Positions 28,533-52,681 of a DNA stretch of 64,000 bases are shown here, one piece after another. Location of the stretch: positions 26,477-90,476 of the forward strand of contig JAQBOM010000014.1 in NCBI GenBank assembly GCA_028288025.1, given 5' to 3'. The notes under the pieces were generated by a model that saw only the letters and a list, made by a program, of their open reading frames with translations, was not told the origin of the DNA and made no database searches. The first letter of the stretch is position 1, and each line of letters begins with the position of its first letter. The DNA comes from Mucilaginibacter sp. Lineage in GTDB: Bacteria; Bacteroidota; Bacteroidia; Sphingobacteriales; Sphingobacteriaceae. Made by a program: the position numbers and the translations under genes.

Positions 28533-29936
28533 ATGAAAAAAATCTCTATTACACTCATCGCAGTAATTGTACTAATGCAGTTTGGTCACGCCCAATGGAC
28601 AACCAGCGGCAGCAATATTTACAACACTAATACCGGCAATGTTGGTATTGGCACAACAACACCGAGTCAAAAACTGGTTGTGATCGGCAATGCCAATGTT
28701 ATCGGGCAATTACGGGCAGACCTGGGTGCAACTGGTACCAGCCTGGTCGTAACTGGGTCAGGTTCAAATTTTCAAATTGGCCACAACGGTACTTCGCATG
28801 TCCAGGTGTTTAACTCCAGCGGCGGTGCTATTCAATTCAACAATTACCTAAATGCTGTTACACTTTTTCATATTGACGGCGGCGGTAATGTCGGCATTGG
28901 CACTACCACACCCGTTGATATTTTTGAAGTATCAAAAAGCTCTACGGCAAAATTTAAGATTTTCACACCTACAAGCTATACCTATCCCACAGATTTTAAT
29001 ACCGGAGTTATCGGATTAGGGTTGTCCAGGAGCGATGGTGTTTATACAGCTGGCATCTATTCATATACTTCTGCTTCCAGTAATGATAATGTCGGCATCG
29101 GTTCAAGAAGCGACATCGTATTTCTTTCTGGCAACGGCGCCTTGGGGCAACAACCCGAAGCAATGAGAATAAAATCGAATGGCAATGTCGGTATCGGCAC
29201 AACAAGCCCCGGATATAAACTGGACATTACTTCGAGCGCTTCCGGAGCTAATGCGAATGGCCTGCGGGTGAATCAAACGGATTTAACTGTAGGGGTTACG
29301 CACAGCTCTGCATTCGCTACGCAACAACTGGGCAGCGGAACTGCAAGGACATTGCTCTATGCCGCGAGTAACACCACCGGGATCACTCAGGGAGAACTTG
29401 ATATTGTAACCGAAAATGGAGGTAGTTTTCTTGCACAACTTGGCTATAATACCACTGGGTCCTCAAACTCGCTTAATTTATACAACGGGTCAACTTCAGC
29501 AATACGACTAAACACAAATGGCAACTCGTACATAAACGGTGGCAATGTAGGCATTGGGACAACCGACCCGGGCACCTATATGCTAGCCGTTAACGGCAGC
29601 GTTCATGCCCGGCAGGTTAACGTTGATATGACCGGCTGGTCGGATTATGTGTTTAATCGTAACTATCTTCTTCCTTCGCTTACTTCGATCAAAGCTTACA
29701 TTGATCAAAACCACCATCTGCCCGACATGCCATCCGAACAGCAAATCATTAAAGACGGGCTGAACTTGGGCGAGATGAATAAGCTGTTGGTGAAGAAGAT
29801 TGAGGAGTTAACGCTATATCTGATTCAAGAGGACAATAAAGATAACGAGCAATCAGTCCAGCTAAAATATCAGCAGGAACAAATTAACAAATTGCAGGAA
29901 CAGCTGAATCAGTTAATTAAAATTTCAGGAAAATAA
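28533..29936 (+). CDS. Secreted fibre-like repeat protein, paralogue 1 (GNVGIGTT repeats + conserved C-terminal domain + coiled coil)
   Basis: 467 aa with a signal peptide ending HAQW. There are four strong GNVGIGTT[TSD]P repeats plus one degenerate DNVGIGS copy. The conserved tail is VNGSVHARQVNVDMTGWSDYVFNRNYLLPSLTSIKAYIDQNHHLPDMPSEQQIIKDGLNLGEMNKLLVKKIEELTLYLI, followed by a Q/E/K-rich coiled coil. Confidence 0.8.
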   Translation: MKKISITLIAVIVLMQFGHAQWTTSGSNIYNTNTGNVGIGTTTPSQKLVVIGNANVIGQLRADLGATGTSLVVTGSGSNFQIGHNGTSHVQVFNSSGGAIQFNNYLNAVTLFHIDGGGNVGIGTTTPVDIFEVSKSSTAKFKIFTPTSYTYPTDFNTGVIGLGLSRSDGVYTAGIYSYTSASSNDNVGIGSRSDIVFLSGNGALGQQPEAMRIKSNGNVGIGTTSPGYKLDITSSASGANANGLRVNQTDLTVGVTHSSAFATQQLGSGTARTLLYAASNTTGITQGELDIVTENGGSFLAQLGYNTTGSSNSLNLYNGSTSAIRLNTNGNSYINGGNVGIGTTDPGTYMLAVNGSVHARQVNVDMTGWSDYVFNRNYLLPSLTSIKAYIDQNHHLPDMPSEQQIIKDGLNLGEMNKLLVKKIEELTLYLIQEDNKDNEQSVQLKYQQEQINKLQEQLNQLIKISGK

Positions 29937-29946
29937 AATTAAAAAA

Positions 29947-31224
29947 ATGAAGAAGGTTTATTTGTTGCTCATCACTATTTTGGCTGCCGTTCAATTCTCA
30001 CATGCTCAATGGGCTGCCAGCGGAACCAATATTTACAATACTAATACCGGCAAAGTTGGTATCGGCACATCTTCGCCCGCGGCTCAGCTTACCGTTCAAA
30101 AGGATTCGGCGGCCACCCAAACGCTTTACGTAAACCGCCTGGCAAATGCCTCACTCGAATTGGTTTCCACTACTAGTAGTGCGCAAGCGACCATCCAGTC
30201 TCAGCCCACATCCCTTTCCATATTAAGCTTTAATCACAGTACGACTAATTATGGAAATATTTACACGAATTCAAACAACAGCTCGCTCAACATTAATGGA
30301 GTCCAAAATGGGCCTCTTGTTTTTTCGGTAAACAACAACGAAGTTATGCGGATGTTACCTTCCGGCAACATCGGTATCGGCAGCACTACTCCGTCTCAAA
30401 AGCTACAAGTCGGGACGGGCACCGACCCCACAGGTATTATTTCATTATGGAACGCATACTCCACTTCGCAAGCCGGACAAATACTATTTAAATCAAACAA
30501 CAACTTTAACGCGAATATCGGTATAGCAGCAATTTCTACAGTAGATATGGGTACTGTAAACGAATCGAAAGGATCATTGATATTTGCCACAGGCAACCAG
30601 GCGGCCCCCGCTGAACATATGCGTATTGATAACCTCGGCAACGTAGGCATTGGGACAACAAGCCCCGGTGCAAACCTTGATATTCAGGGAACTGGCACGG
30701 TACTCGAACGTATTCTATCCTTCGGGAGTATTGCAACGTTACAGCTACGTAATTCAAGTCAAACATGGTCTGTTACAAACCAAGGCACACTTTCTGTATT
30801 TGATGAAACTGCCGGCCTGGCAAGAATTTCTGTATTGTCTGGCACTGGCAATGTCGGTATTGGCACCACAACTCCGGGCACCTACAAACTTGCTGTCAAC
30901 GGTAATGTACACGCCCAGCAGGTTAGCGTTGATCTGACCGGCTGGGGTGATTACGTGTTTGACCGGGATTATACACTTCCTTCGTTAACGCAGATAAAAA
31001 CCTATATCGATCAAAACCACCACTTACCGGACATCCCTTCGGAGCAGCAAATCATTAAGGATGGGTTGAACCTGGGCGAAATAAATAAGCTGCTGGTGAA
31101 GAAGGTGGAAGAACTGACCCTTTATTTGATCGCCTGGGATGAAAAGGAGAAGAGTCAGGATATAAAAATTGACAAATTGGAACAGCGCCTGGCGTTATTA
31201 GAAAAACAGATAGCAAATAAATAA
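29947..31224 (+). CDS. Secreted fibre-like repeat protein, paralogue 2
   Basis: 425 aa with the same signal peptide and N-terminal box (AQWAASGTNIYNTNTGKVGIGTSSP). It has four G[NK][VI]GIG repeats, the same C-terminal domain and a divergent middle. Confidence 0.8.
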   Translation: MKKVYLLLITILAAVQFSHAQWAASGTNIYNTNTGKVGIGTSSPAAQLTVQKDSAATQTLYVNRLANASLELVSTTSSAQATIQSQPTSLSILSFNHSTTNYGNIYTNSNNSSLNINGVQNGPLVFSVNNNEVMRMLPSGNIGIGSTTPSQKLQVGTGTDPTGIISLWNAYSTSQAGQILFKSNNNFNANIGIAAISTVDMGTVNESKGSLIFATGNQAAPAEHMRIDNLGNVGIGTTSPGANLDIQGTGTVLERILSFGSIATLQLRNSSQTWSVTNQGTLSVFDETAGLARISVLSGTGNVGIGTTTPGTYKLAVNGNVHAQQVSVDLTGWGDYVFDRDYTLPSLTQIKTYIDQNHHLPDIPSEQQIIKDGLNLGEINKLLVKKVEELTLYLIAWDEKEKSQDIKIDKLEQRLALLEKQIANK

Positions 31225-31228
31225 GATT

Positions 31229-32629
31229 ATGAAAATAATTTCCCTAACGCTTGTTGCTTTATTATCAATAACCCAGTTAACACAAGCCCAATGGACAACC
31301 AGCGGCAGCGATATTTACAACACCAATTCCGGCAATGTGGGGATTGGCACGACCACGCCGACGGAGAAACTGGATGTTATCGGTATAATAAAGGCTACCT
31401 CTTTCAATGTCAAAGGGGCTACAGCGGTCGAAATAGCGGGGCTGACGGGTACCGGTATGGGGTATAGCCCCACTTCCTATCCTGCTGTAGCTGTCGGTAT
31501 TCTTAGTGGCACGGGTGTAACTTCCATAGGATATAACCCATTAACAAACACAGGCGGTAATTTTGCAGGGGATGGCTCCGAGGTGCTGTTCAGAAATATT
31601 GTAAAATTCATTCAACCTAATGCAGGCGGAACTGACTATCTGTCTTCTACGCTGACAATGAACAACGGCAATGTCGGAATCGGCACTACAAGCCCCACTT
31701 TTAAACTTGATGTGCTGGCGGGCAATGATAACCAGGTATTTCTCGATAATGCCGGCAGCCAATACACGTCCATGTACTTTGCCAATAACGGCACAAAAAA
31801 AGGACAGGTTTTTTACGACAATACCAATTCGTATTTGGGTGTAGGCGGGGCGGCAACAGGAACCGGAACACGTTTTTTTTATGGCGCTGGTACCCTGGCT
31901 ATGACAATTGACGGAAGTTCAGGCAACGTCGGCATCGGCACAATGACACCCGGTTCTTTGGTGGATCTATACGCGCTTGCTCCAGCGGTTAAACTTTCCC
32001 CGAGTTCATATGGTGGTACGAACTATTCTACATATCTCGGATCTCTTCAAACAGCCGTTGGTATGCTTCAACTGGGCAACAACGGGCAAAATGACATCGT
32101 AGCAGGCAATACAAACACAGGCGGATTTTTTCGGTTCATTGTTAATAACAGCAACACATTTCCAAGCGCTGCTAATGGAACGATCGCCATGCTGATCAAT
32201 CCCGCAGGCAATGTCGGCATTGGAACGACGACTCCCGGCAGCTTTAAACTGGCTGTCAATGGTAATGTACATGCCCAGCAAGTTAACGTTGACCTGATCG
32301 GCTGGTCGGATTACGTGTTTAAACGAAGTTATGTGCTGCCATCGCTCGCCAAAGTAAAAACCTACATCGATCAAAACCACCGCCTGCCTGATATGCCATC
32401 GGAGCAGCAAATAATTAAAGATGGATTGAACCTAGGCGAAATGAATAAGCTGCTGGCCAAAAAAGTAGAGGAACTGACGTTATACTTGATCGAACAAGAT
32501 GCAAAAGAAAATAACCAGGAAATAATCAATTCGCAATTGGCAGATAAATTAAAAGCCCAGCAGGCTGAAATAAACGCATTAAATCAAAAAGTGAATACGC
32601 TGCTGAACAAAATCACTCATAATCAATAA
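31229..32629 (+). CDS. Secreted fibre-like repeat protein, paralogue 3
   Basis: 466 aa. AQWTTSGSDIYNTNSGNVGIGTTTP, four repeats, the same C-terminal domain and a longer coiled-coil tail. Confidence 0.8.
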   Translation: MKIISLTLVALLSITQLTQAQWTTSGSDIYNTNSGNVGIGTTTPTEKLDVIGIIKATSFNVKGATAVEIAGLTGTGMGYSPTSYPAVAVGILSGTGVTSIGYNPLTNTGGNFAGDGSEVLFRNIVKFIQPNAGGTDYLSSTLTMNNGNVGIGTTSPTFKLDVLAGNDNQVFLDNAGSQYTSMYFANNGTKKGQVFYDNTNSYLGVGGAATGTGTRFFYGAGTLAMTIDGSSGNVGIGTMTPGSLVDLYALAPAVKLSPSSYGGTNYSTYLGSLQTAVGMLQLGNNGQNDIVAGNTNTGGFFRFIVNNSNTFPSAANGTIAMLINPAGNVGIGTTTPGSFKLAVNGNVHAQQVNVDLIGWSDYVFKRSYVLPSLAKVKTYIDQNHRLPDMPSEQQIIKDGLNLGEMNKLLAKKVEELTLYLIEQDAKENNQEIINSQLADKLKAQQAEINALNQKVNTLLNKITHNQ

Positions 32630-32635
32630 CGCTCT

Positions 32636-33079
32636 ATGCTTAGGTCCAGGTTTATATTAAGCCTAATCGTTTTTACGGTAACCTGCAGCCTTTTTAGCTG
32701 CCGGAATAATTCATCGGTCAAAGCGTTCAAGCGGGACGGCCTGGCCATCGAGATCGCGCGAATAGCCGGTGAACCAGGCGCTGCTTCAGGACTCAATTAT
32801 TCCGCTCGCCTGATCCCTGATAAAAAGCTGGCAGATACGAAAGACAAGGAACTGACCAGCGCTTTGTGGTACCGTATGGACAGCTGTTTTTATTTGCAGC
32901 AAGGTGGCAAAAAAGTGTTCGCAAGCATTATCCAGCCTATCGCAAACGGCGTAGCCGGCAGCTACGAATATTTTTTGTCATTTGATATCAGTCAGGCCGA
33001 GGAAAGCAAATGGCATTTGATTTACCAGGATAAATACCTGAACCAAAAAAAATATTCGCTGAACCTCGGCGATCAATAA
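32636..33079 (+). CDS. Small lipoprotein, unknown function
   Basis: 147 aa. MLRSRFILSLIVFTVTCSLFSC has a lipobox-like Cys. It starts 6 nt after fibre gene 3 and ends 22 nt before the giant gene. Confidence 0.65.
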   Translation: MLRSRFILSLIVFTVTCSLFSCRNNSSVKAFKRDGLAIEIARIAGEPGAASGLNYSARLIPDKKLADTKDKELTSALWYRMDSCFYLQQGGKKVFASIIQPIANGVAGSYEYFLSFDISQAEESKWHLIYQDKYLNQKKYSLNLGDQ

Positions 33080-33101: not shown

Positions 33102-36005
33102 ATGATCATAATCTGCAAATTACGAAAAAAAGCTGCCATAGGAATGCTCATTATCTGGATCATCAACCTGATGTCCCCGTCGCTTGTCTTCGCGCTTACT
33201 TCGGGGCCTGTGCAGCCGGAAAGCAAAGGCTTCCAACCCGCCGGCGTTTCGGACATGGTCGACCTGCAGTCGGGCGCCCTGAAATATAATATACCACTGC
33301 TGGATATTGACGGTTACCCGATCAACCTGAACTACCAGTCCGGCACCGGGATCGATGACGAGGCCAGCTGGGTGGGCCTTGGATGGAACCTTAATCCGGG
33401 CGCGATCACCCGCCAGGTTAGAGGGTTGCCGGATGACTATTCCGGCGATATTGTCGAAACAGACCATTATATTAAGCCCAAGGTAACAGTTGGGGGGCGC
33501 CTTACGGCTAAAGTGGAATATGATGGCATCGCCAGGCCCAGCGGGTCGTTTACATTCGGTGTTTTTAATGACAATTATACCGGGCTTGGCGCCGAGCTGG
33601 GCGCGAACGCCGGTATATCCTATAACTTTGTCAATGATGGCTTCCTGACTGCTGGCCTCGGGGCGGGGGTTTTATCCAATACCCAATCAGGTGTTGACGT
33701 TTCATTTTCGCCCTATGTTTCGCTAAGCATCAAAGAAAATTCAGACAACAACCTGACCATGAGAGCAGGGCTGTCCGGTTCATTTGGTTATAATAGCCGT
33801 TCCGGATTGAAAGCGCTTACCCTGGGGACAAGCTTTGGCCTCAGCAATTCCGAAGGGGAAAAGTCCGGCTGTGCGGAATACAGTATCGGCGGGTCAGTTA
33901 TTTCCTATAATACAGAGCCCATCTCCCCAACCATCCGCGTTCCCTATAGCTCGAACTACGGATCATTCAGTTTCGATATCGGCGGAGAGGCCTTTGGCCT
34001 GTTCGGGTCAGTGGGCGGTACCGGGTACCAGAATGTCCGGCAGGTAAAAACCATCACTAACCCAAAACCAGCCTTTGGCTTTTTATATGCGGAACGGGGA
34101 AAAAACAACCAGGACGCTGTAATGGATTTTATCAGGGAGAATGATAACCCGGTTATCCCGTCGCTGCCTGACCTGGCGATCCCCGTTCATACGCCCGATT
34201 CATGGAGCTATACCAGCCAGGTCGGAAGCGGGCAGTTCCGGCTCTACCGCGGTGGCTCCGGCGCGTTTTTTGATAACCAAGCGACTGACGGTTCAACCGT
34301 ATCAACCACGGGCGGCGACATCGGGATTGGCGCATGGGTTCATGGCGGTATTACGCATTATACCCAAAATGCGAAAACCACCACGCGCAAATGGACGAAC
34401 AACAACGGGTACCTGCCAAACGGAGATTTCCAAAACCCTGACTTTACCAATCCCTCTGCGGAGCATGTTTATTTCAGGCAGGTGGGCGAAAAAAATACCG
34501 AAGACCAGGATATGGATAGCCGGCTTGCAGGTACGCAGGCGGTGGAAGTCGACGTTGTAGGATCAACAGCGTATCACCAGTTCAGGAATGCGGGGAACTT
34601 GCATGGAGGCACTATCCCCGTTGGCTCGCCGATCGCAAAAACGTCCAGGAGGCCCAACCGGACGGTCATTTCATACCTGACGGCAGCTGAAGGCGAACAG
34701 GCTGCCCTCGACAAAAAAATACTGACCTACTCTTTCGTTGATTCGTCAGCGGTTCCCTCGCTGACGCCGTCTCCGGCGATAGCGGCAAGCTGCAACCGCG
34801 TCGATGATGTCCATAAGGCCCATCATATATCGGAGATGACGGTAACGGACGATGGCGGCAAGAGGATGGTTTACGGTATACCAGTCTACAATATTTCCCA
34901 GGACGAATACTCTTTCGCCATCGATCCGGCTTCGAGAGATGCCAATAACCTCGTTGACGTACCACCCGGCATTACCAGCCCGACCGGCGACCCGAATGGC
35001 ATCGATCATTATTACCACGCTGAACATAAACCGTCCTATTCGACAGGTTTTTTGCTGACCGCGATCCTGTCGCCGGATTATGTCGATAAGACCGGTGACG
35101 GCATCACCAACGATGACCTGGGCACAGCCATTAAGTTCAATTATTCAAAGCTGCCTTATTATTATAAATGGCGGACGCCTTATAAAAGGGCCAGCCCAAA
35201 CCGGGGATTGTTGGCAGACCCGGACGATGACAAAGCCAGCATCGTTTACGGCCAAAAGGAGGTTTGGCATGTGCAGTCCATCGAATCGAAGAGCAAAATA
35301 GCCTATTTCATTACGCAGGACCGCAGGGATGCACTGGGCGTAACCGGGTGGCAATATGGCGACCAAGACCCGGCCAATAAGCAAAAATGCTTGAGGGAGA
35401 TACGGCTTTACTCAAAAGCGGATATGAGCCGGCCAATAAAAGTCGTCAAATTCCAATACACCTATGAGTTGTGCCGCGGCATACCGAATTCAGCAGACGT
35501 GGGGAGCACAAATCCCATGCTGGCCGGGAAACTTACCTTGTCAAAAGTGTGGTTCGAATACGGGAATTCGGATAAAGGCAAATACCACCCCTATACTTTT
35601 CAATACAATAAAACGACATCTACTTACTCCACAGTTAATTATGGGTACTCCGTGACCGACCGCTGGGGCATTTACAAACTACCCGGAGAAAATGTCACAG
35701 GCCTGGATAACGAACAGTACCCTTATACCAACCAGACTAAAACGGTGCTGGATGGTAATAGCGCCTTATGGCAGTTAAACCAGGTGACCCTGCCTACCGG
35801 GGGCATCATCAATATGTCCTACGAATCGGGTGATTACGCTTATGTACAGGACAAAAAAGCTATGAGCATGAACCCCGGTTCAAAACCTCATCAATGCGTC
35901 CAACGGAACAGTGTCAGCTGCCAACTTAAACCTGGCGACCGGTATCAGCGTGAATATTGGTACCTCTATAACGCCTCCCTCCGGGGATGCCACTGCCTGG
36001 TTTAA
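33102..36005 (+). CDS. Giant secreted SpvB/TcB-N-terminal-like protein, first reading frame (same gene as 35911..39636, split by a 1-nt frame change near 35873-35876)
   Basis: After the signal peptide comes TSGPVQPESKGFQPAGVSDMVDLQSGALKYNIPLLDIDGYPINLNYQSGTGIDDEASWVGLGWNLNPGAITRQVRGLPDDY. This matches the L-x-Y-x-S...G-x-GW-x-L...I-x-R...G-x-P-x-Y pattern I associate with the SpvB/TcB N-terminal domain. The last ~40 codons (NPGSKPHQCVQRNSVSC...) look like out-of-frame read-through. Confidence 0.7.
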   Translation: MIIICKLRKKAAIGMLIIWIINLMSPSLVFALTSGPVQPESKGFQPAGVSDMVDLQSGALKYNIPLLDIDGYPINLNYQSGTGIDDEASWVGLGWNLNPGAITRQVRGLPDDYSGDIVETDHYIKPKVTVGGRLTAKVEYDGIARPSGSFTFGVFNDNYTGLGAELGANAGISYNFVNDGFLTAGLGAGVLSNTQSGVDVSFSPYVSLSIKENSDNNLTMRAGLSGSFGYNSRSGLKALTLGTSFGLSNSEGEKSGCAEYSIGGSVISYNTEPISPTIRVPYSSNYGSFSFDIGGEAFGLFGSVGGTGYQNVRQVKTITNPKPAFGFLYAERGKNNQDAVMDFIRENDNPVIPSLPDLAIPVHTPDSWSYTSQVGSGQFRLYRGGSGAFFDNQATDGSTVSTTGGDIGIGAWVHGGITHYTQNAKTTTRKWTNNNGYLPNGDFQNPDFTNPSAEHVYFRQVGEKNTEDQDMDSRLAGTQAVEVDVVGSTAYHQFRNAGNLHGGTIPVGSPIAKTSRRPNRTVISYLTAAEGEQAALDKKILTYSFVDSSAVPSLTPSPAIAASCNRVDDVHKAHHISEMTVTDDGGKRMVYGIPVYNISQDEYSFAIDPASRDANNLVDVPPGITSPTGDPNGIDHYYHAEHKPSYSTGFLLTAILSPDYVDKTGDGITNDDLGTAIKFNYSKLPYYYKWRTPYKRASPNRGLLADPDDDKASIVYGQKEVWHVQSIESKSKIAYFITQDRRDALGVTGWQYGDQDPANKQKCLREIRLYSKADMSRPIKVVKFQYTYELCRGIPNSADVGSTNPMLAGKLTLSKVWFEYGNSDKGKYHPYTFQYNKTTSTYSTVNYGYSVTDRWGIYKLPGENVTGLDNEQYPYTNQTKTVLDGNSALWQLNQVTLPTGGIINMSYESGDYAYVQDKKAMSMNPGSKPHQCVQRNSVSCQLKPGDRYQREYWYLYNASLRGCHCLV

Positions 36006-43400: not shown

Positions 43401-46400
43401 GGCAATATGAATAACGCGAGGACAATTCCTGATACCCCATGGACCCATTGCACGCCAAACCCCGGCTGCCGCGTGGCCGACCGGGAGTGGGCCCTTTACC
43501 AGCAGTATTACTTTACCGCCAAGCAAAAATATTACACGCTTTTGAGGAATGCCAGCTGCAGTACGACGGCCCCCTGCGTGATCGGGCAGCCGCTCAGCAG
43601 CAGCCTGCCGGGGGCCTGCCCGGCCATTACGGATTTCAGCGTGCAGCTGTATACAGGCGCTTCTGCCTGTACCGGGACGTACCAGACGGTGGTGGTGATG
43701 CACGATGCGGGCTCGCTGAGCCAAACCACTACGGTAACGCTGTATTACCCGCCGGCCTTAGATAACCCCGGCCTGACGCACAACATCACCTTTGCCGCGG
43801 GCCAGTCGCAAGCGACGATATGCGTGCCGGCTGCTATACCGGTTACTTCTATCTATGTGAACGGGGTGTATTGCCCCAGCTATCCTTACGGCAACGACCC
43901 TACGTACGTGGTAAATGTGGTTGACCAGTCCGGCGGGACACTGACGAACGACTGCAGTAACCCGACGTTCGTTCAGCGCAATACGGTGATCACCTTAAAA
44001 GACAGTTTTGGTAACCCGGTGAACGCGGTAAGCCCGGTTACGGCTACTATCAACTATAATTATACCACCTGCATCAACCCGACCCCGCAGGTGCTTGCCA
44101 TTACGCTGACCATCCCCATCGGGCAAAGCAGCAGCACGGCCAATGGTTATGTGAGCCTGCTTGACTGCACCGTGCCCTGTCACTGGGGCACGAAAACGAT
44201 CGGCATCGGCTGCGTGCAAAGCCTGAGCAATGCCAGCAATGTGACGGGACTGGGCACCTGCACGGGTTATACTTACAGTAATCCGCAGCCGCCCTCGGGC
44301 TCGTGCCCGGCGGCCTATACGGTAAAAATACCGCGCTTCCCGGATGCGACCAGCAACATTGCCGCGCAGGCGGCAGCTACGACGGTCAGCACGCAGCTGA
44401 CCAACCCGGCGAATGCCGCGGTTACGGCGCAGGCGGGGGACATGTGCACGGCAATGTCTGCGGCATGGATTAGCCGGCTGCAGCCAGGTTTAACGGCCAT
44501 GGGCGCAACTCCTACGCAGATCAGCGCGCTGACGGCGGCTTTTGTCTCGATCTGCTCTGCGGGCGGCGATAAAACGCACCCGATGGGCGCCAGTACCCTG
44601 CCATTGCCATTACGGCCCGGCGCGACGGATACCACCTTCGGGGCGGCTATCAAAAGAATATTACTCGGCGGCGGTACGTTTACCACCACGCTGAACCCCT
44701 GGCTGATTGATGCGCCGTACCCGTACACGGTAAAACAGCAGTCGGTGCCGCGGACGATCAGCCGGAGCGATACGGGGCTGTGCAGCCTGATCGGCAGGCT
44801 GACCACCGCCGCAGGCGGCAGCAGCTATTTATACAGTTACCTTGTAACCACTTATGGCAGCGCGATGACGCTAAGCGCTTCGGACCTTACGATGCTGCAG
44901 AATTCCTGCAGCTCGTGCAAGTTTTTGCTTGCAACCGATGTTACTTTGCCGGTGTTTTTAGATCCGGGCGCCGCGGCCTGTATCAGCTACACCGTCTACC
45001 AAAACGCTAAAACAGCGCTGGTGGCGCAGTTTGGCGGTACATTGCCCACCACCGACCCGAACTACCAGACCATATTCGCTAATTACATGAACCAGCAATG
45101 GGGGTTTTCATTAACCTATGCTGACTATGCGGCTTATGATGCGAGTCACCCGGGCCTGCTTTGCAATACGATGCCGTATACGACCATCGCCACTGACCCG
45201 AACGACTGCGTAAAAAATGCCATTGCTAAAGCGGTGATCGACGGGCTGGCGGATTATAACGCCTATATCACAAACCAGCGGCAGCTGTTTAAAGCCAGCT
45301 ATATCGGCACCTGCCGGCTGGCGCAGGCCAACGCGAACCTGAACGGTTTGCAGCAGCAATATCATTATACGCTGTACTACTACGACCAGGCGGATAACCT
45401 TTCAAGGACGATCCCGCCGGAAGGGGTTACCCTGTTTGATACTTCGCGGTTCGGCTATATCGATAAAGCGCGGGATAACGATACGGCGGCTTATGCCTAT
45501 ACCTATAACGGGCCTACCACGGCTTCAAGCCTTACAACGGCTTTAACCACACTTTCAGCTACGTTGAGCGCTTCTGTCGGTTCCGTAGAAATGTGGCTGT
45601 ATAACAATAGCACCAGTAATTACCATTGGGTAGAAGCTACGCCGGACAGAAGCTATTTGTTCCAGGTGGGGTTGTCGGGTAACAAATTAGCCATTGATGT
45701 TTACCCCATGGTACAGCCGACGGGGGCCAGCATACAGCTAATGCCTACAAGCGGGCATTACCAGGCGGATATTAGTGCGTTATTGCCCTTGCCGCCTTTT
45801 GCGCACGTCGTATTCCAGGGAAGCAACCTTGGTGCGGGCACCAGTTTGCCGCAGCTGTACCTGAACGGTACGCAGCTGACGGTAAGCAATACTTCTGCGC
45901 CGAGCCCGTTCGGGTTTAATATTACGGCAGGAAGCACCTCGGTGACTTTCCCGGACAGCATCTATAGCCTGAAGCACCTGCGGCTGTATACGCATTTGCT
46001 GACCCAGGCTACCATAACAGCCGATGCCAATAATGCATTTTTTAATGCCACAGACCTGACCTATACCGGCTGGTACCGCTTTAACGTGCCCGCGCCGGGA
46101 ACGCCGCCAACCACGATCAATGCCAATACGAGCGACGAAACGAATATCATCGATACTTACCCCAATCATGCACTTCCCACCACCTACGCCTATAACAGCA
46201 CCAACCAGGTGACGCAGCAGAATTCGCCGGATGGCGGGACGAACAGTTTTTGGTATGACCTGCTGAGCAGGCTGGTGGTATCGCAGAATGACAAGCAGTT
46301 AGCCGGCAGCAATTACAGCTATACCACCTACGATGTACTCGGAAGAATTACCGAAGTGGGACAAAAGAACCAAACTACGGTAAATATCGGCGCCCCTGAT

Positions 46401-49157
46401 TATTTAACCAGCGCCGCGCTAACAAGCTTTGCCGCGGCGGGGACCAACAGCCAGATCACCGATACGTACTATGACAAACCCGTACCCACGGTAAGCGGCC
46501 ATACCAATGGGATAGCTACCCTGCCGGGGCAGAGCTACCTGCGCAAGCGCGTAGCGGCCAGCACCTATACCGAAACGCAGGGCAGCCCGGTGCTGCGGGC
46601 TACCTATTACAATTACGACCTGGACGGGAATGTAAAAACCTTGTGGCAGCAGGTGGACGGCCTTTATATCAACAGCAGCAATGCCGGGCTGAAGCGCATC
46701 GATTATGAATACGACCTGGTGAGCGGCAAGGTCAATTTCGTGCGCTACCAGGACGGGCAGCCAGATGCGTTTTATTATAGCTATCAATACGATGCTGATA
46801 ACCGCCTCACCAAAGCCTACAGCAGCGTAACAGCCATGGTGGATACCGCCCTGGGCAGTTTTCTGCCGGCGAGTATCAGGAAACTGGATGCGATCTATTA
46901 CTACTATTTGCATGGCCCGTTGCGACGGGAAGTAATAGGCGGAGACAGCGCGGGTGTGCAGGGGGTTGACTATGCCTATACCCTGCAGGGCTGGCTCAAA
47001 GGCGTAAACAGCACGGCGGCGACAGCGGCAATGGATATGGGGCAGGACGGCGCGGATGCGAGCCATAAGGTGGCGAGGGATGCGTATGGGTACTCGTTAG
47101 GTTATTATACGGGTGATTATACCCCGATAGGCGGAACAGGATACACTGCATTTGCCCTGCAGTATACAGCCACTACCGGTGATATAACCGGGCAGAGTTT
47201 GTATAACGGCAATATTTCAAACGCTACTTTAGCAGTTAACCAGCTGGGCAGCCCGGTAGGATACACCTACCATTACGATCAATTAAACCGCCTGAAAAAA
47301 ATGCGGCAGCATACCGGCATAAGCGGCACCAGCTGGGACAGGCACAGCATCACACCCAACTACCAGGAAAACGTGACCTACGATGGCAACGGAAACATCT
47401 TAACATACGGCAGGAACGGGGCCGCACCTACCGCGCAAACCATTGACAGCCTGACCTATAATTACAGCCACAGTGGCAACAAGTTAATTAATAACAGGCT
47501 GAACTCCATAAGCGACGCCATAGCCAATAGCAACTATAGCCTTGACCTGACTAACCAAACCAACCCGACAAACTACCGGTATGATGCGATTGGTAATTTG
47601 ATTTATGATGCGCAATCAGGTATTACCGGTAACGATGGTATAAATAGTATTACCTGGAGCGTTTACGGAAAAATATTAAACATCTATAAAACTACAGGGA
47701 CAATTAGTTACACTTACAACCCTGCCGGCGAGCGGGTAAGCAAAACGGTGGCCGGGTTGACAACTTTTTATATCAGGGATGCGCAAGGGAACACATTAGC
47801 TCTTTATGATAATAAGAGCAGCAATGTAAATTGGCGCGAACAGCATCTTTACGGTAGTAGCCGGATTGGTATGTGGACACCCAATGTGAACCTGGTAACT
47901 AATAACGCTTTAGCGGTATGGGATACGACAGGAAGAAAACAATACGAGCTGACTAACCATTTGGGAAACGTTTTGGAAACAGTTTCCGAGAAAAGATTAC
48001 AGCATACTACTAGCGGTACGAGTATTGACTACTATTTGGCTGATGTGGCTACGGCGCAGGATTATTACCCTTTTGGTATGCTGATGCCAGGTAGGCAGTA
48101 CAGTTTTAATAACGTGTACCGGTATGGTTTTAACGGGAAGGAGAATGATAATGAGGTGAAGGGGTTGGGGAACCAGCAGGATTATGGGAAACGCATTTAT
48201 GATGACAGGGTAGGAAGGTTTTTAAGTGTGGATCCATTACAGGTCAAATACGCTTCATTAACGCCTTATCAGTTTGCTTCTAATAGTCCAATTGATAATG
48301 TCGATTTGGATGGATTAGAAAAGATTTCTCAAAAACTTATAATTAGAGATGGAAAGCCAGTTTTACAGACTTTAAGTGCTGGGCCAAAGCGGCTTTCATT
48401 CCTTCAATGGGTTGTGGGCAGTAGTTCGAGTAGAGACGTACCACTTGAATATAATATTGAGTATTCAGGCCGAACATATAACTTCTCACCATCCTATGAA
48501 AAATTGGATAATGGTCTTCACCCAACATATTCAATGGAAGACTTGAAGAAGTTTTTGAGATCGCCCAATCAAAATAATCTTATTTCCGAAGATGAGGCAT
48601 ACGCAGGGTTTCAACGTCAGGTTATCATAAATACAGCAATTTATGATGTTGATCGCATTTCAGAAGGTGGGAACTTACTGCTAAATAATGCTCTTTCTAA
48701 TATTGCAATTAGCGTTCATAACGGCAATAATGAAGCCACTGAAGCCAACAATGCAGCTCAAAAGAAGCTACAGGTCGATACTTATGCACAATTGAAGAAA
48801 TCAAGTTCAAATTCGGGACTTAGTAATGATCACATACCATCGTTCGCTTCTTTAAAACATGCAGAACAAGAAAGGTTAGGACGAGATTTAAGCGCCCAAG
48901 AAGAGACAAATCTAAAAATGAATTCACTAACATTGTCAATTAAGACAATATTACATATCAAGAGTTCGGAAACATTTGGTGGCAAAAATACCAGGTCAAG
49001 ACAAATCCAAGACGCTAAAAATCCTTTGCAAGCAATCAGAAATAATGTTGAAGCGTATAGAGCCGAATTAAATAAGGAAGGTTACTCAAATGACGAAATT
49101 AACAAGGCAATACAAAAACTTTCCGTTCCATTTAACCAAAATAAAGCCGGGCCATAG
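40413..49157 (+). CDS. 2,914-aa RHS/YD-repeat polymorphic toxin with long non-RHS N-terminal region and variable C-terminal toxin tip
   Basis: Signal peptide is MRKILPLFYFIVLSSLLTLSSATCLA. YD repeats run from about aa 1,935 (YAYNSTNQVTQQNSPDGG..., YTTYDVLGRITEVGQ, YNYDLDGNV, YEYDLVSGKV, YQYDADNRL, YHYDQLNRL, YRYDAIGNL). The RHS core is YRYGFNGKENDNEV...DYGKRIYDDRVGRFLSVDPL...SPIDNVDLDGLE at 48.1-48.3 kb. A ~277-aa AT-rich tip follows. Confidence 0.9.
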   Translation: MRKILPLFYFIVLSSLLTLSSATCLARIESYRDSIKGPFANGTNYIYQDPNYSQTYTIHNPVQNTVALRVLDNVLISSAFTCTLSLRIDYYTYATNTLTTVYPSLTVNYAAGQGVTYKGLDIYSFQGAYKIQVTVLSSAYTGSTPPANSLQLTSDIVIDRTYAFSGGQVIGAAYTWATNGKQLQATWAPVSGAEEYDVEWTTINTGNSNFALLYANLTSHSSPNIPAVSTALAQCFRNNGSRITTKKDTCTLSVLSTDSLLLVRIRQAQYDPVSGVRVAGNWDYTKGIYYAMWVLNWNEQTQNWQYSAAFAEDGKKKEVISYFDGTLRGRQTVTINNSDNVALAQENIYDDFGRPSASILPAGYKEPSYTPYLHYIKNFNVISANTPYTFANVSGTTPALCELNPDPLSTLAGASRYYSNQNDFTGLNINNNYIPDAVGYPLSVTQYTNDNTGRIRSQGGVGLAFQPGKSGSPPLSKTTKYYYGKPEQWELDQLFGNDAGYAEHYLKNTVVDPNGQISVSYLNASGKTIATALAGLKPASLDTLTSYKPLLPAGKPRNLHILKPEQFIFNSTGLTLNANTTYLATAIGPDTLKFNMQQLIDYYPGGAFQVCSNCYYTMTAKVSDDCGNTIAAITTPLPIGSATANPLATGLFTTSLVAPIAAPGEYNVNIRLAFDNNVIQAYTDSMISKGIQNGYLEQQFGYIKKRYLDSIDVSACYSDCHTCKLLLGTKTDFAQMLRTKCIALGLDSVSVSGAPFTAWANQVYAADSTKCQSLQAGCSYSPCTSIQNVMQNDVSPGGQYALFDSSGITLEPSANVITEILPGATQQNWRVVFPVLLPTNPVYQANAIVLPDGTTTSPNDALFNIQQLITYWQPAWATSFLVYHPEYCRLQYCISNATYESWDMIVQQDINTAAAVPNIPTGGAPLSYAFDNPADWLMAGDPFFKSGGPGYSYASQMSTDLAQYSVNVLGISNSSQHPTRSVMAYIDFTLYCLDTLGNMNNARTIPDTPWTHCTPNPGCRVADREWALYQQYYFTAKQKYYTLLRNASCSTTAPCVIGQPLSSSLPGACPAITDFSVQLYTGASACTGTYQTVVVMHDAGSLSQTTTVTLYYPPALDNPGLTHNITFAAGQSQATICVPAAIPVTSIYVNGVYCPSYPYGNDPTYVVNVVDQSGGTLTNDCSNPTFVQRNTVITLKDSFGNPVNAVSPVTATINYNYTTCINPTPQVLAITLTIPIGQSSSTANGYVSLLDCTVPCHWGTKTIGIGCVQSLSNASNVTGLGTCTGYTYSNPQPPSGSCPAAYTVKIPRFPDATSNIAAQAAATTVSTQLTNPANAAVTAQAGDMCTAMSAAWISRLQPGLTAMGATPTQISALTAAFVSICSAGGDKTHPMGASTLPLPLRPGATDTTFGAAIKRILLGGGTFTTTLNPWLIDAPYPYTVKQQSVPRTISRSDTGLCSLIGRLTTAAGGSSYLYSYLVTTYGSAMTLSASDLTMLQNSCSSCKFLLATDVTLPVFLDPGAAACISYTVYQNAKTALVAQFGGTLPTTDPNYQTIFANYMNQQWGFSLTYADYAAYDASHPGLLCNTMPYTTIATDPNDCVKNAIAKAVIDGLADYNAYITNQRQLFKASYIGTCRLAQANANLNGLQQQYHYTLYYYDQADNLSRTIPPEGVTLFDTSRFGYIDKARDNDTAAYAYTYNGPTTASSLTTALTTLSATLSASVGSVEMWLYNNSTSNYHWVEATPDRSYLFQVGLSGNKLAIDVYPMVQPTGASIQLMPTSGHYQADISALLPLPPFAHVVFQGSNLGAGTSLPQLYLNGTQLTVSNTSAPSPFGFNITAGSTSVTFPDSIYSLKHLRLYTHLLTQATITADANNAFFNATDLTYTGWYRFNVPAPGTPPTTINANTSDETNIIDTYPNHALPTTYAYNSTNQVTQQNSPDGGTNSFWYDLLSRLVVSQNDKQLAGSNYSYTTYDVLGRITEVGQKNQTTVNIGAPDYLTSAALTSFAAAGTNSQITDTYYDKPVPTVSGHTNGIATLPGQSYLRKRVAASTYTETQGSPVLRATYYNYDLDGNVKTLWQQVDGLYINSSNAGLKRIDYEYDLVSGKVNFVRYQDGQPDAFYYSYQYDADNRLTKAYSSVTAMVDTALGSFLPASIRKLDAIYYYYLHGPLRREVIGGDSAGVQGVDYAYTLQGWLKGVNSTAATAAMDMGQDGADASHKVARDAYGYSLGYYTGDYTPIGGTGYTAFALQYTATTGDITGQSLYNGNISNATLAVNQLGSPVGYTYHYDQLNRLKKMRQHTGISGTSWDRHSITPNYQENVTYDGNGNILTYGRNGAAPTAQTIDSLTYNYSHSGNKLINNRLNSISDAIANSNYSLDLTNQTNPTNYRYDAIGNLIYDAQSGITGNDGINSITWSVYGKILNIYKTTGTISYTYNPAGERVSKTVAGLTTFYIRDAQGNTLALYDNKSSNVNWREQHLYGSSRIGMWTPNVNLVTNNALAVWDTTGRKQYELTNHLGNVLETVSEKRLQHTTSGTSIDYYLADVATAQDYYPFGMLMPGRQYSFNNVYRYGFNGKENDNEVKGLGNQQDYGKRIYDDRVGRFLSVDPLQVKYASLTPYQFASNSPIDNVDLDGLEKISQKLIIRDGKPVLQTLSAGPKRLSFLQWVVGSSSSRDVPLEYNIEYSGRTYNFSPSYEKLDNGLHPTYSMEDLKKFLRSPNQNNLISEDEAYAGFQRQVIINTAIYDVDRISEGGNLLLNNALSNIAISVHNGNNEATEANNAAQKKLQVDTYAQLKKSSSNSGLSNDHIPSFASLKHAEQERLGRDLSAQEETNLKMNSLTLSIKTILHIKSSETFGGKNTRSRQIQDAKNPLQAIRNNVEAYRAELNKEGYSNDEINKAIQKLSVPFNQNKAGP

Positions 49158-49160: not shown

Positions 49161-49604
49161 ATGGCGTGCTCAATAAATATGGATATTTTAAATTGGATTG
49201 GTAAAAATATTAACGAGGTCAAAGAAACTTTGCTTTATAAGCGGTATTTTACGAATATTCCTTTAGAAAAGGGAACTGACGTATATTTTTTATTTAACCG
49301 ATTATTAGGAATTGATTTGATTTTGAATGAAAGTTATAATATTAAGTCAATTCACCTTTACTCGGGCAATAAGGATGACATACATCGATTTCCTTATGAA
49401 TTACCTTTTGACTTGAATTTTTCTTTATCGAGGAATGATACCAGGCTAATTTTAGGACCGCCTAATAAGTCTGGTGGTGGCGACTTTAGCTTTATATATG
49501 GTATTACCCCGCCTTGGGATAAATACGTTTATGATAAATTTAGCTTACATCTTCAATTTTTTGAAGACCACAGTGAAATTGCATTACTTACTATCGGCAG
49601 TTAA
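49161..49604 (+). CDS. Putative cognate immunity protein of the RHS toxin tip
   Basis: 147 aa with no signal peptide. It starts 3 nt after the RHS stop and shares the low G+C of the toxin tip. The call is positional. Confidence 0.6.
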   Translation: MACSINMDILNWIGKNINEVKETLLYKRYFTNIPLEKGTDVYFLFNRLLGIDLILNESYNIKSIHLYSGNKDDIHRFPYELPFDLNFSLSRNDTRLILGPPNKSGGGDFSFIYGITPPWDKYVYDKFSLHLQFFEDHSEIALLTIGS

Positions 49605-49764: not shown

Positions 49765-51657
49765 TTGCCTTTTGCCACTACTTTGCAAACTGGTGGCTAT
49801 TTAAGGCAATTATATAATGGGAATATAGTAGCTGCAAGTGTTAACATCCCGCAACTGACTTCAAGCACTTACTGGCTGGACAAGGTGTATACTTATGACC
49901 AGCTGAACCGGATAAAAAGCGCTACCGCATACCATACCGTTAGTACAAGCAGTACGCCGGTACACAACGGGGATTACGACGAGACATTCACTTATGACGG
50001 GAACGGGAATATATTAGCGGTTAACAGGGCGGGTTCCGGTACGGGTACGTTGAAAGATATAGAGAGCTATACGTACAACAGACATAGCAATGGCCAGTTG
50101 GTTAATAATCAACTTAATTACCTGAATGGGCATGCAGGGGCCAGCAATATTACACCTGACCAGGGTATTAATAACTATACTTATGACCCCATTGGGAATT
50201 TGACAGCCGATGTGCAAGCCGGTATTACAGCCATTGGCTGGAATGTATATGGTAAGATAACAAATATCAATAAAGCGACAGGCAATATTACTTATACCTA
50301 CAACCCCGCCGGGCAACGGGTAAGTAAAACGGTGGTCGGTTTAACTACTTACTATATCCGTGATGCACAGGGGAACACGCTGGCGCTTTATGATAATAAG
50401 AGCAGTAATGTAAACTGGCGGGAGCAGCATTTATACGGCAGCAGCCGCTTGGGTATGTGGACTCCAAATGTAAACCTCGCTATTAATAATGCTTTATCTG
50501 TTTGGGATACTACAGGCCGAAAACAATATGAACTCAGCAACCATTTAGGGAATATGCTGGCGACCATTAGTGATAAACGGCTGCAACACACAACAAGTGG
50601 TACCAGTATAGATTACTATAATGCGGATATTGCGACTGCACAGGATTATTATTCGTTTGGCAGTTTACAACCGGGCAGGCAGTACAATTTCAATAATGTT
50701 TACAGGTATGGGTTTAATGGGAAGGAGAATGATAATGAGGTAAGGGGTGTGGGTAATGAACAGGATTACGGGCAAAGGATTAATATAAATTGGGTTTGTA
50801 GGTTTTCAAGCGTGGACCCCATTAGCAGACAATATCCTGAATTGTCTTCTTATCAGTTTGCTGGTAATAATCCTATCTTAAATATCGATTTAGACGGACT
50901 AGAGCCAAAACGTTTACATTCGGACGATCCAATAACCGAGTTCTTCAATGATATTGCTTACAAATTTGAACTAAAGGTTTACAAATTCGACGCAAAAGTT
51001 TCGAAAATGAGCGATCAGCAAATACAAGACGGAATTAATAAAACAGCCGCCAGTATAATTCGAAATCCTATAAAAGTAGTAGATAATACAATAAAAGATA
51101 TAGAAAAGCAGGGGCATCAGGTTCCTAAAGACCTCAAAACTTTTTCACATCTCGTTGCAAATGGCGAAACGAAAAACGCAAAAGACTTTGCAGAAAATAA
51201 AATTGTTGAATATGCCCCGTGGGCGTTGTTTCTTGAAGAAAAGGAATTCGAAACGACTGCACCAAAGCTGTTTGAAAGTGAAACTGAAGTTCCCATTAAA
51301 GGAACAGGGGATTATCAAGACGTAGGTGGGCATCATGTGCATGCTAAAGCAGCATTTCGCGAAGTTGCAACTTATGACCCTAAAAGGGGATTTTCTGTAA
51401 GCCAAAAGCTAATGAGAGAATTAAACATCGATCACAATACTGTGACTCAAATGCAGAGACGCTTATTTAACGATTTGGCTAAAAGTGGACGACCTAATAC
51501 TTTGATCGAACAAACGAAAATTGCAAAAGAAGCGTTAATAGCCGGCGGGGCTACTGAAAAATTGGCCAATGACTTAATTAAAGCTTCCTTAGAAAACCTT
51601 AAAAGTCAAAATGTTACAGCACCTTCAAATATACCTTGGAATAAAAAGAATAACTAA
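49765..51657 (+). CDS. Orphan rhs C-terminal cassette (last YD repeats + core + alternative toxin tip with GHH-type HNH/EndoVII-like signature); lacks N-terminus and ATG
   Basis: The track ORF starts at TTG. Aa 1-380 parallel aa ~2,260-2,640 of the main RHS (e.g. YTYNPAGQRVSKTVVGLTTYYIRDAQGNTLALYDNKSSNVNWREQHLYGSSRLGMW). The tip after DLDGLE (50905 onward) is unrelated to the main tip and contains DVGGHHVHAKAAF. Confidence 0.75.
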   Translation: MPFATTLQTGGYLRQLYNGNIVAASVNIPQLTSSTYWLDKVYTYDQLNRIKSATAYHTVSTSSTPVHNGDYDETFTYDGNGNILAVNRAGSGTGTLKDIESYTYNRHSNGQLVNNQLNYLNGHAGASNITPDQGINNYTYDPIGNLTADVQAGITAIGWNVYGKITNINKATGNITYTYNPAGQRVSKTVVGLTTYYIRDAQGNTLALYDNKSSNVNWREQHLYGSSRLGMWTPNVNLAINNALSVWDTTGRKQYELSNHLGNMLATISDKRLQHTTSGTSIDYYNADIATAQDYYSFGSLQPGRQYNFNNVYRYGFNGKENDNEVRGVGNEQDYGQRININWVCRFSSVDPISRQYPELSSYQFAGNNPILNIDLDGLEPKRLHSDDPITEFFNDIAYKFELKVYKFDAKVSKMSDQQIQDGINKTAASIIRNPIKVVDNTIKDIEKQGHQVPKDLKTFSHLVANGETKNAKDFAENKIVEYAPWALFLEEKEFETTAPKLFESETEVPIKGTGDYQDVGGHHVHAKAAFREVATYDPKRGFSVSQKLMRELNIDHNTVTQMQRRLFNDLAKSGRPNTLIEQTKIAKEALIAGGATEKLANDLIKASLENLKSQNVTAPSNIPWNKKNN

Positions 51658-51662
51658 TATAT

Positions 51663-52037
51663 ATGATGGAAAAATTAGAATCGTTAGGTAAAGAAATAAT
51701 TGAAAATCTAAGAGATTTATCAATTGAAGAATATTTAGCAATTAAAAAGGGAAGTCTGAAATCAAGAGATGCCCAAAATATTTATAAAATATTCTCATCT
51801 GTAAATAAGAAAGATCAAGACAAGATCGATAAAATTGTTTTTAATGTCATTGATAGGGTTTTACATAACGCTTTATGGATGTTTGAACAAAGTAAAGACT
51901 TTACAATAACCGATAAGAATTTAATTAGCCCTAACGAAGATATTGTAGAAGAAAGTGATGGACTGTCAGGTGAATTATATAGTGAAGACGGCTGGATAGA
52001 AAAATACAGCAAATTCCCATTAGGTACTTCTATTTAG
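51663..52037 (+). CDS. Putative immunity protein for the orphan toxin tip
   Basis: 124 aa, acidic, no signal peptide, starting 5 nt after the orphan cassette stop. The call is positional. Confidence 0.55.
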   Translation: MMEKLESLGKEIIENLRDLSIEEYLAIKKGSLKSRDAQNIYKIFSSVNKKDQDKIDKIVFNVIDRVLHNALWMFEQSKDFTITDKNLISPNEDIVEESDGLSGELYSEDGWIEKYSKFPLGTSI

Positions 52038-52102
52038 GCTTGAGCGTGCGCAGCCGGGTACAGTTGCGAACGAATTAAAGAAAATAGGAACAGAACTATT
52101 AA

Positions 52103-52681
52103 ATGGGACATTCCCTAAATAAGATGAAAATATATAGCGTAAGACCTGATAGTAATAACGTTCAGTGGGTTATACCAATAGTCCCAGAAGAAAATATCTT
52201 AAGTGTGTTATCTTTTGATTGCATTACCAAGAAAAATGGGTTCGATAATATTGAATGGTATATATTCAATCCGAAAGAAAGGAAAGGTAATTTCTATACC
52301 GGAGTGAATGGCGCTTTAATTTTTGATCAGGAAGTATATGATAGCGATCTTTCTATTTTATTTGAAATGGCTGGAGAGATATTGCCCATTAAACTCGAAA
52401 ATGGTGAAATATTATATGCTCTTAACGTTTTGGAATGTGTTAACATGTTAAATCAAAAAGAAACAACCTATGATATTTACGATAGTGGCAAAAGAGGGAG
52501 AATTCTAAATTATTCGTTTCATCCAGACAGATTATCAGAATCATCTATTTTTAAAATCCCGGAAACTTCTCGCGTAGAGATTTTGACTTATACAGATGTT
52601 AAGTATCCGGATGATGAATTTTATACCGTATATAAAGAATCCGGTTTTACAGGGTTAGTTTTTGAGGAAATTTGGGGGTAG
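52103..52681 (+). CDS. Additional immunity-like protein without adjacent toxin (orphan immunity candidate)
   Basis: 192 aa (the alternative start is MKIYSV at 52124), cytoplasmic-looking and AT-rich. It is the last gene of the block. Confidence 0.45.
   Translation: MGHSLNKMKIYSVRPDSNNVQWVIPIVPEENILSVLSFDCITKKNGFDNIEWYIFNPKERKGNFYTGVNGALIFDQEVYDSDLSILFEMAGEILPIKLENGEILYALNVLECVNMLNQKETTYDIYDSGKRGRILNYSFHPDRLSESSIFKIPETSRVEILTYTDVKYPDDEFYTVYKESGFTGLVFEEIWG

Follow-up and report, generated by a model that had tools for sequence, protein, structure and literature searches.

A block of co-directional genes on the plus strand of a 64,000-nucleotide (nt) stretch of Mucilaginibacter sp. DNA (contig JAQBOM010000014.1; the whole stretch is the window referred to below) encodes, between positions 28533 and 52681, three tail-fibre-like proteins, a small lipoprotein, a giant protein, a LolA3-like protein, an RHS polymorphic toxin and an immunity candidate, followed by an orphan rhs and immunity array. 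Judged from gene content and gene order, this block is probably (we put the chance at roughly 0.55) a reduced, "satellite" variant of an undescribed module for the Sec-dependent export or presentation of RHS toxins, most likely one that serves contact-dependent antibacterial killing. By the same comparisons the module is widespread and uncharacterised in Sphingobacteriia and Chitinophagia. Its toxin and immunity part is of a known kind; the accessory set belongs to no secretion or delivery system that we found described. An earlier sequence-only reading of this DNA had suggested that the system was new, and literature searches (confined to sources outside subscription) likewise returned no description of the module.

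Conservation of the gene order

The listing of open reading frames (ORFs) placed every ORF of the block on the plus strand and reproduced the gene order and coordinates of the sequence-only reading, with the single exception that the giant gene is split; the intergenic gaps of the core (10, 4, 6, 22, 9, 11 and 3 nt) agreed exactly on recount. Signal peptides were judged by a basic N-terminus and by the best 10-residue Kyte-Doolittle mean. The N-termini are basic and then hydrophobic (means of 2.7-3.3) in all seven structural products, namely the three fibres, the 147-amino acid (aa) lipoprotein, the giant, the 251-aa protein and the RHS protein, while a hydrophobic leader is absent from the three immunity candidates (mean ≤1.3), in agreement with the earlier claim that every structural product and no immunity candidate carries a signal peptide or lipobox. 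Scans of nine block products against Pfam (E up to 10) and NCBIfam (E up to 1) found only three families, DUF6443, the RHS core and LolA3_fam. A profile check proposed with the sequence-only reading had also named SpvB, which stayed below threshold, and TcdB mid-N and FG-GAP, which gave no match.

The giant protein gave us access to the family as a whole. An indexed search returned 2,298 homologue matches, about 2,000-2,800 aa long and annotated as hypothetical, and an exhaustive search returned 4,731 cluster representatives (50% identity) at E ≤1e-3. In a collection with one genome per species there were at least 418 matches, the best 80 of which served as related loci; they come from Mucilaginibacter, Pedobacter, Chitinophaga, Niastella, Sediminibacterium and others. 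All named hosts of the module belong to the Sphingobacteriales or Chitinophagales. Two loci labelled as metagenome-assembled genomes (MAGs) of Citrobacter freundii (L055) and Rhizobium sp. (L066) carry a Bacteroidota-type module and are probably mis-binned.

Of the 75 loci long enough to show the core order, 74 have it: the giant comes first, next an ORF of 228-307 aa (typically about 260), and then the start of a DUF6443-RHS protein. This order is retained down to 34-40% identity to the giant of the window. The survey of gene order suggested in the sequence-only reading thus supports its view that the genes of the block form one co-directional unit that is conserved. Across Bacteroidota the core is found widely and lacks annotation, every accessory protein of the module being labelled hypothetical. 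From the related loci we defined a canonical, barrel-containing module with the order 0-6 fibre genes, a ∼800-aa barrel protein, a ∼365-aa protein, the lipoprotein, the ∼2,200-aa giant, the LolA3-family protein, the DUF6443-RHS toxin and its immunity protein. In the window the three fibre genes adjoin the lipoprotein gene at the place where relatives have the barrel pair.

The components of the module

Upstream of the lipoprotein and giant genes, a gene whose ∼365-aa product gives weak DUF928 and Ig-like signals is present in 68 of the 73 non-duplicate loci that have more than 4.6 kb of upstream sequence, and a gene for a ∼800-aa protein (650-970 aa) adjoins it in 66 of the 73 (examples are L001:3280-6683 and L003:5759-9468). 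The ∼800-aa protein carries a signal peptide, and an aromatic motif of YY/HY type is conserved a few residues before its C-terminus. Its AlphaFold2 model, built on 17 sequences, has about 26 long antiparallel strands and a helical insert of ∼170 residues, with a predicted local distance difference test score (pLDDT) of 80-93 in the C-terminal half and 66.8 overall. Foldseek comparison of this model with the PDB gave 69 matches at E ≤1e-3, and all 50 of the 50 listed are outer-membrane barrels, including SlpA, FimD, LptD, MtrB, TonB-dependent transporters and Occ porins. Since the template modelling (TM) scores are low, these matches assign the protein to a fold class, that of the large outer-membrane barrels, and not to a family; we therefore refer to it as a predicted large outer-membrane β-barrel. 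A sequence profile of the barrel had no meaningful match among PDB sequences. The homologue search recovered 2 matches with the full-length query and 20 with the C-terminal half, words from the helical insert having probably filled the candidate list.

These observations divide the claim of the sequence-only reading that the block lacks any recognisable secretion machinery. For the ORFs of the window that were scanned the claim stands: we found no known secretion system among them, and specifically no TcA, no type VI secretion system (T6SS) VgrG, Hcp or PAAR and no two-partner secretion gene. For the family it fails, as about 90% of the homologous loci have the predicted barrel gene and hence a candidate outer-membrane component. 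Both upstream genes are absent from five of the 73 loci, all of them Mucilaginibacter. A rough neighbour-joining tree built from the N-termini of the giants puts the window together with three of these barrel-less loci (L004, L005 and L007), in which the giant is intact, and this clade is sister to the barrel-bearing L033; L007 and L033 derive from the same MAG. L004 and L005 share with the window a placement of fibre genes directly 5' of the gene for the lipoprotein.

The giant gene (33102..39636) would encode about 2,177 aa once repaired. The sequence-only reading had treated it as a single ORF of ∼2,180 aa, but as found it consists of two overlapping ORFs, of 967 aa (33102-36005) and 1,241 aa (35911-39636). 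When the intact homologue P0001 was used as a TBLASTN query, its residues 1-935 ended at 35870 and residue 936 began at 35872 in the next frame with no residue lost, so that a 1-nt indel can be located to the CCCC run at 35873-35876. Both halves are otherwise open and are 66-73% identical to P0001 over their full length, and homologues are uninterrupted at this site. Either the indel arose in sequencing, where 1-nt changes in homopolymer runs are a common error, or it is a very recent inactivating mutation. Programmed frameshifting or phase variation was considered and rejected, since four bases are too short for slippage switching and the homologues show no interruption.

No Pfam or NCBIfam family was assigned to the giant, even at permissive thresholds, and a family profile of 53 sequences matched no PDB chain at E ≤10. 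The AlphaFold2 model of the first 923 aa (pLDDT 66.8, predicted TM score 0.68) likewise returned nothing at E ≤1e-3 when compared by Foldseek with the PDB and BFVD. The best conserved part of the protein is its C-terminal ∼60 aa (39454..39636), nearly invariant in the family alignment, which contains two YD hairpins; the Y.YD motifs lie at aa 2122 and 2144 only, and the Pfam RHS_repeat match is below threshold (E 0.31). Weak PA14 and CBM_4_9 signals occur in giant homologues, some of which are called PA14 domain proteins by their sources. We also noted that aa ∼110-330 (33430-34090) are rich in glycine and serine (15% and 12%, respectively) and have raised period-2 β-amphipathicity; this region is modelled as long hairpins at a confidence below 50, and every one of its top Foldseek matches, although none is significant, is an outer-membrane barrel. 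The region may insert into a membrane as β structure, and it offers a lead, at most, towards an inverse-autotransporter-like protein with its own N-terminal barrel.

Between the giant and RHS genes lies the gene for a periplasmic protein of 251 aa with a signal peptide (39646..40401), which matches the NCBIfam family LolA3_fam (NF053579) with an E value of 1.3e-14 and 54.3 bits, the curated cut-off being 83 bits. All nine of the syntenic middle ORFs tested also match LolA3_fam, three of them above the cut-off (154.6 bits in L069, 108.6 in L073 and 101 in L045), indicating that the middle gene of the module belongs to the LolA3 family; by sequence, the protein of the window is probably a divergent member. 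LolA3 of Flavobacterium johnsoniae (Fjoh_0605) and Porphyromonas gingivalis (PGN0947) has been assigned no function, shows no gliding or type IX secretion system (T9SS) phenotype and does not bind LolB (PMC11885536, PMC13103446). Neither of these papers mentions an RHS context, and a link between LolA3 and RHS was not found elsewhere in the literature searched.

The gene for the small lipoprotein (147 aa; 32636..33079) precedes that for the giant. Its lipobox, LFSC, ends in Cys22, with no acidic residues after the cysteine, and Cys22 is the sole invariant column among 29 syntenic family members. In 65 of 76 loci the giant is immediately preceded by a small ORF. The lipoprotein itself has no match in Pfam, NCBIfam or the PDB.

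The RHS protein (2,914 aa; 40413..49157) has a signal peptide, DUF6443 at aa 306-369 (41328..41519; 27.8 bits, at threshold), a YD shell at ∼46185-48062 with YD motifs from about aa 1925 to 2400, the RHS-associated core TIGR03696 at aa 2551-2635 (48063..48317; 46.4 bits against a cut-off of 32.5) and, after a DLDGLE motif at aa 2631, a toxin tip of 278 aa (48318..49154). The motif is of the DPxGL cleavage type and cleavage at it is putative. These features confirm the earlier description of an RHS protein with a core and a variable tip. The N-terminal ∼1,650 aa are rich in cysteine: all 42 cysteines lie within aa 24-1634 (aa 1-1634 being encoded at 40413-45320) and there are none in the YD shell, core or toxin, a distribution that fits folding outside the cytoplasm. 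DUF6443 returned nothing from the literature searched. A weak resemblance to TseN (PDB 9J9W chain B, E 0.08) covers the final ∼110 aa of the tip, both having an SGL..DH.PS.A motif. Tips differ from locus to locus, being of Colicin-DNase/WHH type followed by a SUKH immunity gene in Mucilaginibacter X5P1 and of PT-HINT type in Niastella; such variation, together with nuclease tips and SUKH immunity, is typical of antibacterial polymorphic toxins.

Three nt past the RHS stop codon begins an ORF of 147 aa (49161..49604), an immunity candidate by position, with no hydrophobic N-terminus and no family match. It is followed by an orphan rhs fragment of 630 aa with a TTG start (49765..51657), which comprises the end of a shell, a core and a different tip. 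Its aa 14-380 are 63% identical to aa 2261-2636 of the RHS protein (74% over 668 nt of DNA), it has its own DLDGLE motif at aa 375 with unrelated sequence thereafter, and it matches Pfam RHS_repeat with an E value of 3e-6; its tip had no match in the PDB search. The orphan array described in the sequence-only reading is thus present. Five nt downstream lies the candidate immunity gene for the orphan tip (124 aa; 51663..52037), and after it an ORF of 192 aa (52103..52681) that by position is possibly a further orphan immunity gene; both products are without a signal peptide or family match.

The three fibre paralogues lie at 28533..29936 (467 aa; PHROG 18345 E 9e-12 and PHROG 9942 E 4e-9), 29947..31224 (425 aa; PHROG 9942 E 1e-16 and PHROG 18345 E 2e-15) and 31229..32629 (466 aa; PHROG 18345 E 6e-15). 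The first has a signal peptide ending in HA|Q, repeats of GNVGIGTTTP type, a coiled coil and, at the C-terminus, a domain of ∼70 aa that is conserved, and it is weakly similar to the Bdellovibrio fibre structures 8OND (Bd2133; E 3e-4) and 8OL4 (E 2e-3). The C-terminal domain is common to all three proteins (its hidden Markov model (HMM) matches the third with an E value of 3e-73) and has no match in Pfam, NCBIfam or PHROG. The matches to PHROG tail-fibre families and to 8OND uphold the identification as fibre proteins made in the sequence-only reading, trimerisation being putative. They do not bear the rank of core component that it gave them: fibre genes with this C-terminal domain occur in 16 of 84 related loci and are accessory. 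Two Pedobacter loci have such genes between the LolA3-like and RHS genes (L025:17422-19134 and L058:17296-19651).

As to the surroundings of the block, its flanks encode functionally unrelated proteins (histidine kinases, a cyclase, a YitT membrane protein and a Crp-type regulator). The 1.1 kb before the first fibre gene (27412-28532) has no ORF of at least 110 aa and includes a GC-rich segment at ∼27600-27660; Rfam and tRNA scans gave no match there or anywhere in the window. Scans for sigma-70 promoters and terminators, whose consensus is ill-suited to Bacteroidota, gave chance-level counts and were not used. G+C content rises to 0.56 inside the RHS gene (42000-46000) and is 0.36-0.38 over the toxin tips and immunity genes (48000-54000), the flanks being at ∼0.40. 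On the minus strand at 11280-14868 (G+C 0.44-0.475), a gene for a patatin-like phospholipase (571 aa) adjoins one for a PLD/NgoFVII-like protein (601 aa), which could be a conflict-system pair. Two paralogous three-gene cassettes lie at 58029-60787 and 61555-63715; each encodes a DUF5777 β-barrel, a small protein with a C-x-S-G-C-H motif and either an EB_dh/CBM9-like protein or one of 258 aa that has a hydrophobic leader and a cysteine.

Proposed mechanism and alternative explanations

RHS toxins leave Gram-negative cells via the T6SS or as Tc complexes, and we know of no route by which an RHS protein with a Sec signal crosses the outer membrane. We propose that the module supplies one. Sec would take all structural products across the inner membrane, as their signal peptides suggest. 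In the periplasm the LolA3-like protein may act as a chaperone, either for the lipoprotein of the module or for some hydrophobic part of the giant or of the RHS protein. Going by the relatives, the barrel, perhaps partnered by the lipoprotein in the manner of LptD and LptE, would provide passage through the outer membrane or an anchor in it. The giant could then act as a surface scaffold or adhesin, and one might speculate that its C-terminal YD hairpins and N-terminal SpvB/DUF6531-type motif dock the RHS protein. Trimeric fibres, by their homology to tail fibres, would bind targets as exchangeable targeting parts. Finally, the tip would be freed from the RHS shell after cleavage at DLDGLE, and the product of the downstream gene would shield kin. 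The SUKH-paired nuclease tips of relatives such as X5P1, and the immunity-position gene and orphan array in the window, argue for bacterial targets.

Several observations weigh against a reduced module of this kind. The barrel and 365-aa genes are absent from the six-frame translation of the window by TBLASTN and by family HMMs (E ≤10), and the giant is frameshifted, so that this copy may be dead; from the two together we consider that its function probably depends on a complete locus at another place in the genome, or that it has been newly inactivated. The LolA3-like protein of the window scores below the LolA3 cut-off, and the profile of its family found no LolA structure among PDB sequences. 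Both structural models, of the giant N-terminus and of the barrel, are of moderate quality (mean pLDDT 66.8), and the barrel model rests on 17 sequences, with Foldseek TM-scores of 0.2-0.5. Toxin tips received no confident family assignment in the Pfam and PDB searches. More tentatively, and as less likely than not, we put forward the wider proposal that the family constitutes a new outer-membrane export or presentation system dedicated to Sec-dependent RHS toxins, assembled from the barrel, the 365-aa protein, the lipoprotein, the LolA3-family protein and the giant, with the copy in the window a satellite that has fibre genes in place of the barrel pair and whose machinery is supplied in trans.

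The best of the alternatives, which we nevertheless regard as unlikely, is that the giant and RHS protein cross the outer membrane via the T9SS of the host, by an unrecognised signal or by piggyback, and that the module genes encode cargo or adaptors. The Sphingobacteriales and Chitinophagales, to which all named hosts belong, generally possess a T9SS, every product has a Sec signal peptide as T9SS cargo does, and the nearly invariant end of the giant is sorting-signal-like. Moreover, in the 2015 F. johnsoniae secretome of Kharade and McBride the products of Fjoh_0601, 0602, 0604 and 0606, genes that presumably flank lolA3 (Fjoh_0605), are said to be T9SS-dependent and to lack a recognisable C-terminal sorting domain. 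However, as the sequence-only reading had also concluded, sorting domains are missing here: the type A and type B models of NCBIfam (TIGR04183 and TIGR04131) had no match in the nine products at E ≤1. The C-terminus of the RHS protein is occupied by a polymorphic toxin, so no conserved C-terminal signal is possible there, and the family has a conserved outer-membrane barrel gene of its own. In addition, deletion of lolA3 in F. johnsoniae leaves T9SS-dependent amylase secretion and gliding unaffected (PMC11885536), which means only that the T9SS does not need LolA3.

It is somewhat less probable still that the block is a decaying, non-functional remnant which has lost the barrel and 365-aa genes, has a broken giant and keeps its toxin/immunity pairs for protection. 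The frameshift and the missing upstream genes fit such decay, and the orphan rhs and extra immunity candidates show past rearrangement. Yet at least three further genomes of Mucilaginibacter (L004, L005 and L007) have the barrel-less layout with an intact giant, the halves of the giant are open save for a single indel of a kind that sequencing commonly introduces, and the remaining genes of the block are all intact and closely packed.

A Tc-like complex, with the giant as TcB and the RHS protein as the TcC cocoon, released against eukaryotes such as amoebae, nematodes or insects, appears improbable to us. This comparison stems from the N-terminus of the giant, where a stretch at aa 74-127 (33321..33482) matches Pfam SpvB (PF03534) below threshold (E 0.012; 15.2 bits against 22 for the N-terminal fragment) and over profile positions 26-71 of 287 only; the whole giant gave no SpvB match even at E ≤10. 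The same motif, again sub-threshold, is found in three of four full-length homologues and in three of nine N-terminal fragments of homologues (the fragment from the window excluded), one other fragment matching DUF6531 instead. An RHS core with an autoproteolysis-type motif is also a feature of TcC, and the weak PA14 and CBM_4_9 signals of homologues could mean glycan binding. Against this, no TcA gene was found among the window ORFs scanned, TcdB mid-N, mid-C and FG-GAP had no Pfam match even at E ≤10, and no TcB was recovered by the family profile in the PDB or by Foldseek with the N-terminal model. The "SpvB/TcB-like giant" of the sequence-only reading is in this way reduced to a sub-threshold N-terminal motif of ∼50 aa, and the Tc analogy to a shared short motif with an RHS neighbour, without membership. 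As a split cocoon its parallel with TcB/TcC is weak, because the giant ends in two YD hairpins only and the RHS shell begins ∼1,900 aa into the protein encoded two genes on. The structural products of the block carry signal peptides, which to our knowledge Tc subunits lack. That bacteria are the targets is also indicated by the nuclease tip of a homologue, which is paired with SUKH immunity, and by the immunity and orphan arrays of the window.

That the fibres, giant and RHS protein are unrelated surface proteins side by side by chance is hardly credible, even though most related loci have no fibre genes and promoter and terminator scans were uninformative, since the conserved order contradicts it for the core genes, the gaps are only 3-22 nt and two loci (L025 and L058) have fibre genes embedded within the core.

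If the proposed export module is real, it would represent a new type of secretion system and would give LolA3 its missing function. Our analysis ties LolA3 to a specific cargo system, and the existing ΔlolA3 strain of F. johnsoniae makes the hypothesis directly testable. It also nominates a new family of large outer-membrane barrels, and it suggests that fibres serve as modular targeting parts for an antibacterial toxin, a point of relevance to microbiome competition and engineered delivery. Soil- and plant-associated Mucilaginibacter, Pedobacter and Chitinophaga commonly carry the module.

Comparison with known systems

With the Tc toxins the block shares an RHS protein with a variable tip encoded after a very large protein with an SpvB-type N-terminal motif. 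It differs from them in that no TcA, no full SpvB domain, no TcB mid domains or propeller and no structural match to TcB were detected, and in the signal peptides on all products and the antibacterial context with immunity genes. As regards two-partner secretion and contact-dependent inhibition systems, no family match to TpsB (POTRA domains and a 16-strand barrel) or to a TPS domain was found in the block products.

The fibres resemble phage tail fibres and the mosaic adhesive trimer fibres of Bdellovibrio (Bd2133; PMC10769870) in their repeat regions of GNVGIGT type. In contrast to these, the fibres here have a signal peptide immediately before the first repeat, and they have the conserved ∼70-aa C-terminal domain, which is without a family match, and a coiled coil.

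The 251-aa protein and its syntenic counterparts match the family of LolA3 from F. johnsoniae and P. gingivalis, the protein of the window below the curated cut-off. In relatives, the genes for a predicted barrel of about 26 strands, a small lipoprotein and a periplasmic protein of LolA fold occur together, which recalls LptD/LptE, FimD/FimC and MtrB/MtrA/MtrC. The Foldseek E values of the barrel against LptD, FimD and MtrB are 1e-5 to 5e-4, which at such TM-scores speak for the fold class only; unlike those proteins it has the helical insert, there is no sequence similarity to them, and its genes are those missing from the window.

The closest likeness is to the RHS/YD-repeat polymorphic toxins, such as the Rhs effectors of the T6SS and the Gram-positive WapA, with which the RHS protein shares the YD shell, the TIGR03696 core, the DPxGL-type motif and the variable tip; as in other RHS systems, a gene in the immunity position is adjacent and an orphan tip/immunity array follows. 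The T6SS effectors differ in their context, no PAAR, VgrG, Hcp or Eag family match being present among the window ORFs scanned. Compared with both these effectors and WapA, the RHS protein described here has a Sec signal peptide and a cysteine-rich N-terminal region of ∼1,900 aa with DUF6443, and it is accompanied by the giant and the LolA3-like protein.

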